Below, in pieces: positions 41,510-41,643 of a stretch of 64,000 nt of DNA (the stretch's first letter is position 1; each line of letters begins with the position of its first letter). The DNA is taken from assembly GCA_905209725.1 (NCBI GenBank), contig CAJLTZ010000001.1, positions 53 to 64,052 of the forward strand, in the 5' to 3' direction. The DNA is from an uncultured Muribaculaceae bacterium. Its GTDB lineage: Bacteria > Bacteroidota > Bacteroidia > Bacteroidales > Muribaculaceae. The notes beneath the pieces were generated by a model. The model was given only the letters and a program-made list of their open reading frames with translations, made no database searches and was not told where the DNA came from. The translations under genes and the position numbers were made by a program.

Positions 41510-41643
41510 AAACCCCATCCCATGCAGGGGCGACCGATTTTTGCGCATCTCAGCCAAGTCTCATCGGTCACGATGCCCGCATCGCTCCCTCTTCAACTTG
41601 CTGAGCTGCATCAAAAATCGGTCGCCCCTGCATGGGATGGGGT
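41510..41643. repeat. 134 bp palindromic element: perfect ~33 bp inverted terminal arms (aaaccccatcccatgcaggggcgaccgatttttg / caaaaatcggtcgcccctgcatgggatggggt) around a 65 bp partially palindromic core
   Basis: Read directly from the sequence. Sits immediately 3' of the 269 aa ORF (stop at 41674). MITE-like, giant terminator or structured RNA. Confidence 0.7.

Follow-up and report, generated by a model that had tools for sequence, protein, structure and literature searches.

A 134-nt palindrome behind a protease operon of a gut Muribaculaceae bacterium is very probably a rearranged MITE copy

What is a near-perfect palindrome of 134 nt doing immediately behind a protease operon of an uncultured Muribaculaceae bacterium, and how did its arms become perfect? 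An initial annotation of this DNA had left the choice between a miniature inverted-repeat element, a recombination or integration site, a giant terminator and a structured RNA. The window, that is, the whole stretch that was analysed, comprises 64,000 nucleotides (64 kb) of a human-gut metagenome contig, and one of the loci retrieved for comparison (L002, ERZ919809 k127_80752) is apparently the same contig. The EF-G encoded in the window belongs to a 90% cluster to which its sources give the name Muribaculaceae. With a probability of roughly 85%, we consider the palindrome to be a rearranged copy of a family of non-autonomous DNA transposons (MITEs) that has spread in Muribaculaceae via T-W-A insertion, W being A or T. 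The long perfect stem would then be explained by a mobile-element copy that was reshaped by hairpin-templated replication, and not by a regulatory device; no major concept is altered by this reading.

The palindrome and its genomic setting

The features of the locus to which the text refers are the following.

36782-40474, - strand: purL
40596-41069, - strand: purE
41380-41416, - strand: conventional terminator candidate, GGCCGG...CCGGCC then AAUUUUUU, about 95 nt past the element on the operon strand
41508-41510, + strand: TTA flank on the purE side, putative target-site copy (TWA at 133/137 family ends)
41511-41644, no strand assigned: the whole element, read as a MITE copy and as a single-module, palindromic, rearranged allele (nhmmer E=1.7e-36 and allele comparison)
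41512-41543, + strand: left arm, the 12 terminal nt of the family TIR fused directly to GCAGGGGCGACCGATTTTTG, the canonical 13 nt AAAAAATGTTAAT being absent
41524-41631, - strand: conserved hairpin module of about 95 nt, whose sense strand is the - strand (covariance model R1 and covariation)
41612-41643, + strand: right arm, perfectly reverse-complementary to the left one, which it matches down to the 13-nt deletion junction
41645-41647, + strand: TTA flank on the ORF269 side, putative target-site copy (TWA at 133/137 family ends)
41674-42483, - strand: ORF of 269 aa (ORF269), without Pfam family
42514-43686, - strand: C10 peptidase with I69 inhibitor domain
43958-45412, - strand: MatE transporter

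A repeat search of the window located two arms, at 41512-41543 and 41612-41643, which are 32 nt long each, 100% complementary and 68 nt apart. The perfect arms described initially are therefore real, but their given lengths (33 bp, around a core of 65 bp) have to be corrected to 32 and 68 nt, and the coordinates were one base off. The arm 32-mer occurs at only these two sites in the 64-kb window, even when three mismatches are allowed, and the arm match was equalled in 0/100 dinucleotide shuffles, in agreement with the earlier judgement that the stem lies beyond chance. The core (41544-41611) is an imperfect palindrome, as had also been noticed, and together with it the element forms a single long hairpin. 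The folding-energy prediction that the initial annotation had proposed gave -92.3 kcal/mol for RNA of the + strand (z = -13.3) and -106.5 kcal/mol for RNA of the - strand (z = -15.9), with 0/200 shuffles as good in either case; the predicted DNA fold reached -57.4 kcal/mol. The perfect arms and the folds of both strands thus confirm the 134-bp near-perfect palindrome. As delimited here (41511-41644, 134 nt), the element has TTA at either side (41508-41510 and 41645-41647), and its coding capacity amounts to one spurious 70-aa frame that crosses it and has no Pfam match.

The neighbouring genes are all on the - strand. The element begins 29 nt 3' of the stop codon of ORF269, which itself comes after the C10 peptidase gene. 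No integrase or transposase gene was found near the element in the annotated neighbourhood, which leaves the proposed recombination or integration site unsupported.

Several further observations concern the setting as such. The GC content of the C10 peptidase/ORF269 pair is 0.32-0.45 (41700-43950), compared with about 0.6 in the neighbours MatE and purL, and a horizontally acquired islet would fit this low-GC pair. ORF269 (41674-42483, - strand) is an ORFan that forms one 90%-identity cluster among 5.8 billion proteins. The purE-purL spacer (40499-40540) contains 3.2 copies of a 13-nt tandem repeat, AAATGAATCAGAA, whose copy number is strain-variable, with an extra 13-nt unit present in 3/9 haplotypes. 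A tRNA is located at 15722-15806 (- strand).

Could the palindrome have evolved in place as a giant intrinsic terminator, or as an RNA-stabilising hairpin, dedicated to the protease operon? Its position only 29 nt past a stop codon, the folding energy of its - strand RNA and the sense orientation of its hairpin module, which is that of the operon strand, all speak for this idea. However, the stem of 32+ bp is followed on the - strand by UUUAAGUAACC, and the transcribed sequence after the stem (GGGGUUUAAGUAACC) has no U-run as a Rho-independent terminator would have; a terminator scan returned no - strand terminator at the element, and a conventional hairpin with a U-run stands about 95 nt beyond it. 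Moreover, the same sequence is present at dozens of unrelated intergenic sites, beside 5' and 3' gene ends, and in other strains a 319-nt allele of another shape occupies the same place. We therefore consider it quite unlikely that the element originated as a terminator, and the "giant terminator" of the initial annotation does not hold as an account of its origin.

The conventional candidate (41380-41416, - strand) was read from the sequence and is weak (-15.9 kcal/mol, z = -1.9); the terminator scan, which allowed loops of 3-8 nt, missed it, presumably because its loop is longer. After it comes a Bacteroidetes-type TAnnTTTG -7 motif at 41337-41330 (- strand). Since this motif and the terminator candidate are both situated between the MITE and purE, the arrangement suggests a position of the MITE within the 3' UTR of the operon upstream. 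Its present-day effect is likely incidental and would consist of a very stable predicted hairpin in that 3' UTR.

A dispersed repeat family with TWA flanks

A search for additional copies, also proposed initially, revealed a multi-copy family. The inner-arm 20-mer GCAGGGGCGACCGATTTTTG was found at 52 sites in 47 metagenome loci, nearly all of them from assembly OGNF01, and the canonical TIR at no fewer than 44 loci in genome contigs, representing at least 5 MAGs (Sangeribacter sp., Muribaculaceae and 'Porphyromonadaceae'). The family is hosted by human and animal gut Muribaculaceae; the palindrome, which matches the family profile with nhmmer E=1.7e-36, is its sole copy in the 64-kb window. 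Most of the 20-mer matches lie <=25 nt from a contig end and face outward, as is typical of multi-copy repeats at which assemblies break. Likewise, all 6 Logan (k=31) contigs of the locus end at ...GATGCAGCT, the last 31-mer unique to the window copy; they stop where the sequence common to canonical copies starts, which implies that canonical copies are present in the same samples. The 22-mer CCATCCCATGCAGGGGCGACCG, which runs across the 13-nt deletion junction found at this locus only, had no match in genome contigs. The TIR gave 0 matches in viral contigs, and a canonical copy had none among plasmids and phages by blastn.

The family TIR is 33 nt long (GACCCCATCCCAYAAAAAATGTTAAYGCAGGGG), and a canonical end consists of TWA directly followed by GACCCCATCCCAYAAAAAATGTTAAYGCAGGGG. 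Among the loci retrieved there are 137 ends, of which 133 adjoin TAA or TTA and have a pyrimidine (Y) at -4, and 19 complete copies of 65-517 bp. Nearly all ends are intergenic (117/123) and adjoin the 5' and 3' ends of genes alike; about 10 copies (e.g. L052:770-780) sit exactly on the TAA stop of a gene, so that the stop codon is the TWA flank. A canonical copy of about 330 nt comprises the 33-nt TIRs and a hairpin module of about 95 nt inside each end, the two modules being inverted. At other loci (L101, L087), there are copies of about 160 nt that have one module and full TIRs, which indicates that this architecture arises repeatedly.

Compared with the canonical form, the window element lacks the 13 nt AAAAAATGTTAAT in both arms, has two ends of the 'left' type and contains one hairpin module, not two. 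At its end, position 41511 is occupied by A, in contrast to the G of the family, whose ends read GACCCC...GGGGTC. Because both of its TIRs are shortened and a terminal base is altered, the window copy is probably immobile. In several respects it conforms to the MITE-like option of the initial annotation: it is short (134 nt, well below the roughly 600 bp expected as an upper limit of MITEs) and non-coding, of the common TIR it retains the inner part and the 12 terminal nt, it carries TWA flanks, and it belongs to a family whose copies are dispersed and mainly intergenic.

A long imperfect hairpin in many intergenic copies would also be expected of a REP/BIME-like element, of an IS200/IS605-derived palindromic element (PATE) or of an integron attC-type site. 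However, the ends of the family are symmetric, with 33-nt TIRs and a TWA at either side, whereas IS200/IS605 derivatives are not known to have TIRs, symmetric flanks or a target-site duplication. PATE and REP/BIME elements are characterised by asymmetric ends with sub-terminal hairpins and by a linked Y1 transposase or RAYT. Genes for a Y1/HUH transposase, a RAYT or an integrase were not found near the window copy or the complete copies inspected. The attC reading was set aside, since the copies are dispersed and not arrayed in cassettes and an integrase is absent nearby. We regard an origin from any of these elements as extremely unlikely.

For the MITE family, the TIRs, the TWA flanks and the non-coding interior point to mobilisation by a DDE transposase with a 3-nt stagger. 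This transposase would have to act in trans and, judging from the TWA flanks, may be of the IS5/PIF-Harbinger type, to which a 3-nt stagger presumably fits; the 3-bp TNA/TWA of that type is seen at 133/137 ends, with the flank pairs often mismatched. No autonomous partner with the same TIRs was found in about 600 kb of retrieved loci or in plasmids, phages and viral contigs, and an all-against-all blastp of 937 ORFs from the retrieved loci revealed no multi-copy protein beside the ends. The ORFs that border unpaired ends belong to ordinary genes (MFS, beta-lactamase, ABC, DprA, acyltransferase).

The flanks of 20 complete copies (L028, L033, L035, L038, L042, L058, L065, L075, L093, L098, L103 and others) were compared. 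Both flanks are always TWA, and the middle base is the same on both sides in 12/20; the mismatched pairs read TAA..TTA six times and TTA..TAA twice. A plain fill-in duplication predicts identical flanks, and agreement in 12/20 is therefore not expected from it. Structurally unique copies are among those with mismatched flanks, which makes mis-assembly an unlikely cause. Two uninterrupted paralogous sites were found, each with a single TWA. On the basis of the flank table, the roughly 50:50 distribution of W in near-identical recent copies and these paralogous empty sites, we rejected a TA duplication, a 4- or 5-bp YTWAR duplication, a TWA that is part of the element and a blunt insertion between two TWAs. 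It can be speculated that the mismatches derive from carry-over of a 3-nt overhang of the donor or from recombination between copies.

Our literature searches returned no paper describing a MITE of Muribaculaceae, and the family appears to be undescribed, although elements of this kind are well known. Correia elements (Neisseria), RUP/BOX (Streptococcus pneumoniae) and ERIC are likewise short, non-coding, TIR-bounded and intergenic. They occur in tens to hundreds of copies, form long hairpins, are often co-transcribed with their neighbours and include length variants that arose by internal deletion. The present family differs from them in its unrelated sequence, its Muribaculaceae host, its TWA instead of TA flanks and its hairpin module of about 95 nt with covarying stems at each end. 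The nearest described relatives by host are the Bacteroidales MITEs of Porphyromonas gingivalis, MITE239, MITE700 and MITEPgRS, which are present in dozens of copies including fragments; the TIRs of MITE239 and MITE700 are those of ISPg3 (PMC2575886). They are likened to the present family by description and host order, not by sequence, and a cognate IS of the latter was not found in the loci searched. Tourist-type MITEs such as mPing depend on PIF-Harbinger transposases, to which the bacterial IS5 family, with subgroups that make 3-bp TNA/TWA duplications, is related. mPing has 3-bp TTA/TAA sites (PMC4561436). The present family has 3-bp TTA or TAA flanks in common with these systems, from which the link is drawn, and it likewise consists of short, TIR-bounded, non-autonomous elements; as a difference, the middle base of its two flanks disagrees in 8/20 copies.

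In abundant gut Muribaculaceae, each genome contains dozens of sites at which the family causes short-read assemblies to break. Knowledge of the TIR GACCCCATCCCAYAAAAAATGTTAAYGCAGGGG may aid the scaffolding of MAGs and the recognition of strain-level insertion and length polymorphisms.

Two minor observations were made among the repeats. The TIR itself starts with GACCCC and ends with GGGGTC, and 'mini' elements of 35 nt, which consist of one TIR (GACCCC...GCAGGGGTC) with TWA on both sides, are found at L073:29, L084:104, L088:2513 and L104:2018, and also in L092 and L097. A third repeat family, with the end GAAGTTGTCTAAAC..., is seen in L023, L030, L039 and L065; a fragment of about 35 nt at 14205-14240 of the window (GAAGTTGTTTAAACTAATTTACGTTTAATGAAATC) matches this end and apparently stands alone in a short gap between genes.

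A long and a short allele of the element

At exactly the same site, other gut samples carry a canonical two-module allele of 319 nt (L001/L011, L014, L015, L018, L019), while the 134-nt allele is present in L002/L012, L013, L016, L017, L003 and L004. Both alleles have the left arm with the 13-nt deletion and are identical over the first 105 nt, past which the 319-nt allele continues with the canonical interior and right end. They part after ...GCGCAAAAA; the short allele then continues with TCGGTCGCCCCTGCA, 15 nt that are exactly complementary to the left arm, and rejoins the long allele at the 11-nt TGGGATGGGGT, which is common to both. The short allele ends in GGGGTT, the long allele and the family in GGGGTC. 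Over 3.3 kb of flanking sequence, the 319-nt allele occurs on two diverged haplotypes but the 134-nt allele on one haplotype cluster, which indicates that the 319-nt form is ancestral. Every contig that carries ORF269 has the element, and no empty allele was found among these contigs; ORF269 is without homologues elsewhere, and the lack of a related empty locus follows from its being an ORFan with a single 90% cluster. What speaks for presence/absence polymorphism is thus the pair of length alleles at this site together with the paralogous empty sites.

From this comparison, we infer that the short allele arose by a hairpin-templated strand switch accompanied by a deletion of about 200 nt. A canonical copy would have inserted at a TAA 26 nt past the ORF269 stop, in the 3' UTR of the operon and upstream of the purE promoter region, and the left TIR of this inserted copy would have been missing 13 nt. 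In one sublineage, replication would then have switched template at the quasi-palindrome of the left module: the nascent strand may have folded back at ...GCGCAAAAA, copied its own left arm (TCGGTCGCCCCTGCA...) and then returned to its first template at TGGGATGGGGT in the right end, where this sequence forms the tip of the right TIR. The outcome would be the replacement of about 200 nt by 15 templated nt, which would create the perfect 32-nt arms. The perfection of the arms is thus a secondary rearrangement and not a family-wide property. A template switch leaves the terminal C-to-T change unexplained, and a separate substitution is needed for it.

Template switching at quasipalindromes is an established mutational route (PMC7202029). 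There, too, an imperfect inverted repeat is made perfect by arm-to-arm copying; the event proposed here differs in that about 200 nt were also lost via an 11-nt repeat, and in that it is seen as a natural polymorphism and not in a reporter assay. The two alleles illustrate cleanly, at the population level, how a quasipalindrome template switch can be coupled to a deletion.

Palindromes and repeats are known to break assemblies, most contigs of this locus end inside the element, and the scaffolds L003, L004, L016 and L017, from three samples, break at the centre of the palindrome. Hence it may be asked whether the palindrome is itself an assembly artefact, such as a fold-back chimera or a collapsed hairpin. 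However, the identical 134 nt together with both unique flanks were obtained from two independent samples, with MEGAHIT k127 and k141 (L002/L012, L013), and k = 141 exceeds the length of the element. The half-elements on the four broken scaffolds, which come from samples other than these two, match it and have the linked terminal T. Furthermore, the short allele is linked to a single cluster of flanking haplotypes, and the sequence at the right junction differs from the reverse complement of the left flank. An artefact is therefore very unlikely, and the misassembly that the initial annotation had considered is contradicted by the independent k127 and k141 assemblies; the 134-nt form is best regarded as a genuine allele of the MITE copy.

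The hairpin module

With covariance model R1, the module of the window element reaches 121.9 bits on the - strand, compared with 54.8 bits on the + strand. It has a purine-rich hinge, AAGTTGAAGAGGGAG / GACCGATGAGACTTGG, and an apical stem-loop, CGATGC-GGG-CATCG; bulges, the purine-rich hinge and the GCGGGC apex are conserved, and three tandem G·A motifs can be read from the predicted fold. In family 1, compensatory changes are found at 14/35 pairs, and 96.5% of the cells pair, compared with 31-41% when the partners are slid. Between left and right modules, 13/20 consensus pairs covary, and stem covariation is also seen from one subfamily to another. Left, right and subfamily-B modules have the same folded shape, and the two modules of a canonical copy are both 'sense' inward from their own end.

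A covariance-model search further revealed a second MITE-like family, which has the termini GTATGACSCSMAAATTA..., TWA flanks and a homologous central module, and whose elements are located as follows.

L033:5830-6001: second-family element
L042:10949-11120: second-family element
L028:7124-7295: second-family element
L038:8131-8246: second-family element

When this second TIR family (GTATGAC...) is added, compensatory changes extend to 18/35 pairs. One further locus, L021, resembles a chimera of both TIR families.

In Rfam 15, the window element had no match at the gathering score, its best match at E<=10 being Parecho_CRE noise (18 vs 55 bits), and the canonical copy had no match at all. The 'structured RNA' of the initial annotation may thus hold at most for the conserved, covarying hairpin module of the family, which corresponds to no Rfam family.

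These properties raise the question of whether the hairpin module is the functional unit, as a structured RNA or as a single-stranded DNA signal, for instance one that insulates against read-in transcription or that is bound by an accessory protein of transposition, with the MITE ends as its vehicle. Covariation of the stems both within family 1 and across the two TIR families, the conserved bulges and purine-rich hinge, the common shape of left, right and subfamily-B modules and the inward sense orientation in canonical copies are in favour of this possibility. On the other hand, the module has no Rfam family, all high-scoring modules lie within TIR-bounded elements or their fragments, and the covariation was sampled from few independent lineages, perhaps 4-5. 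In addition, hairpin-templated correction, as proposed for the window copy, can mimic covariation without selection. A module with the MITE ends as mere vehicle is in our view rather unlikely. The hairpin could have a role in transposition or at the RNA level, or it could be a by-product of hairpin-templated correction.

A more far-reaching proposal would be that the module, which at least two Muribaculaceae MITE families with different termini have in common, is a functional structured nucleic-acid element and, separately, that the elements carry the 3-nt overhang of the donor to the new site in a piggyBac-like, seamless manner, as the mismatched flanks may show. We consider this rather unlikely; if it were true, the module might be a single-strand transposition signal or an insulator against read-in transcription. 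Leads for transposon biology are offered both by the hairpin module and by TWA flanks that do not match.

Elsewhere in the window, Rfam recognises an S4-Bacteroidia ribosomal-protein leader at 61877-61913 (+ strand), with 35.0 bits against a gathering score of 34.7.
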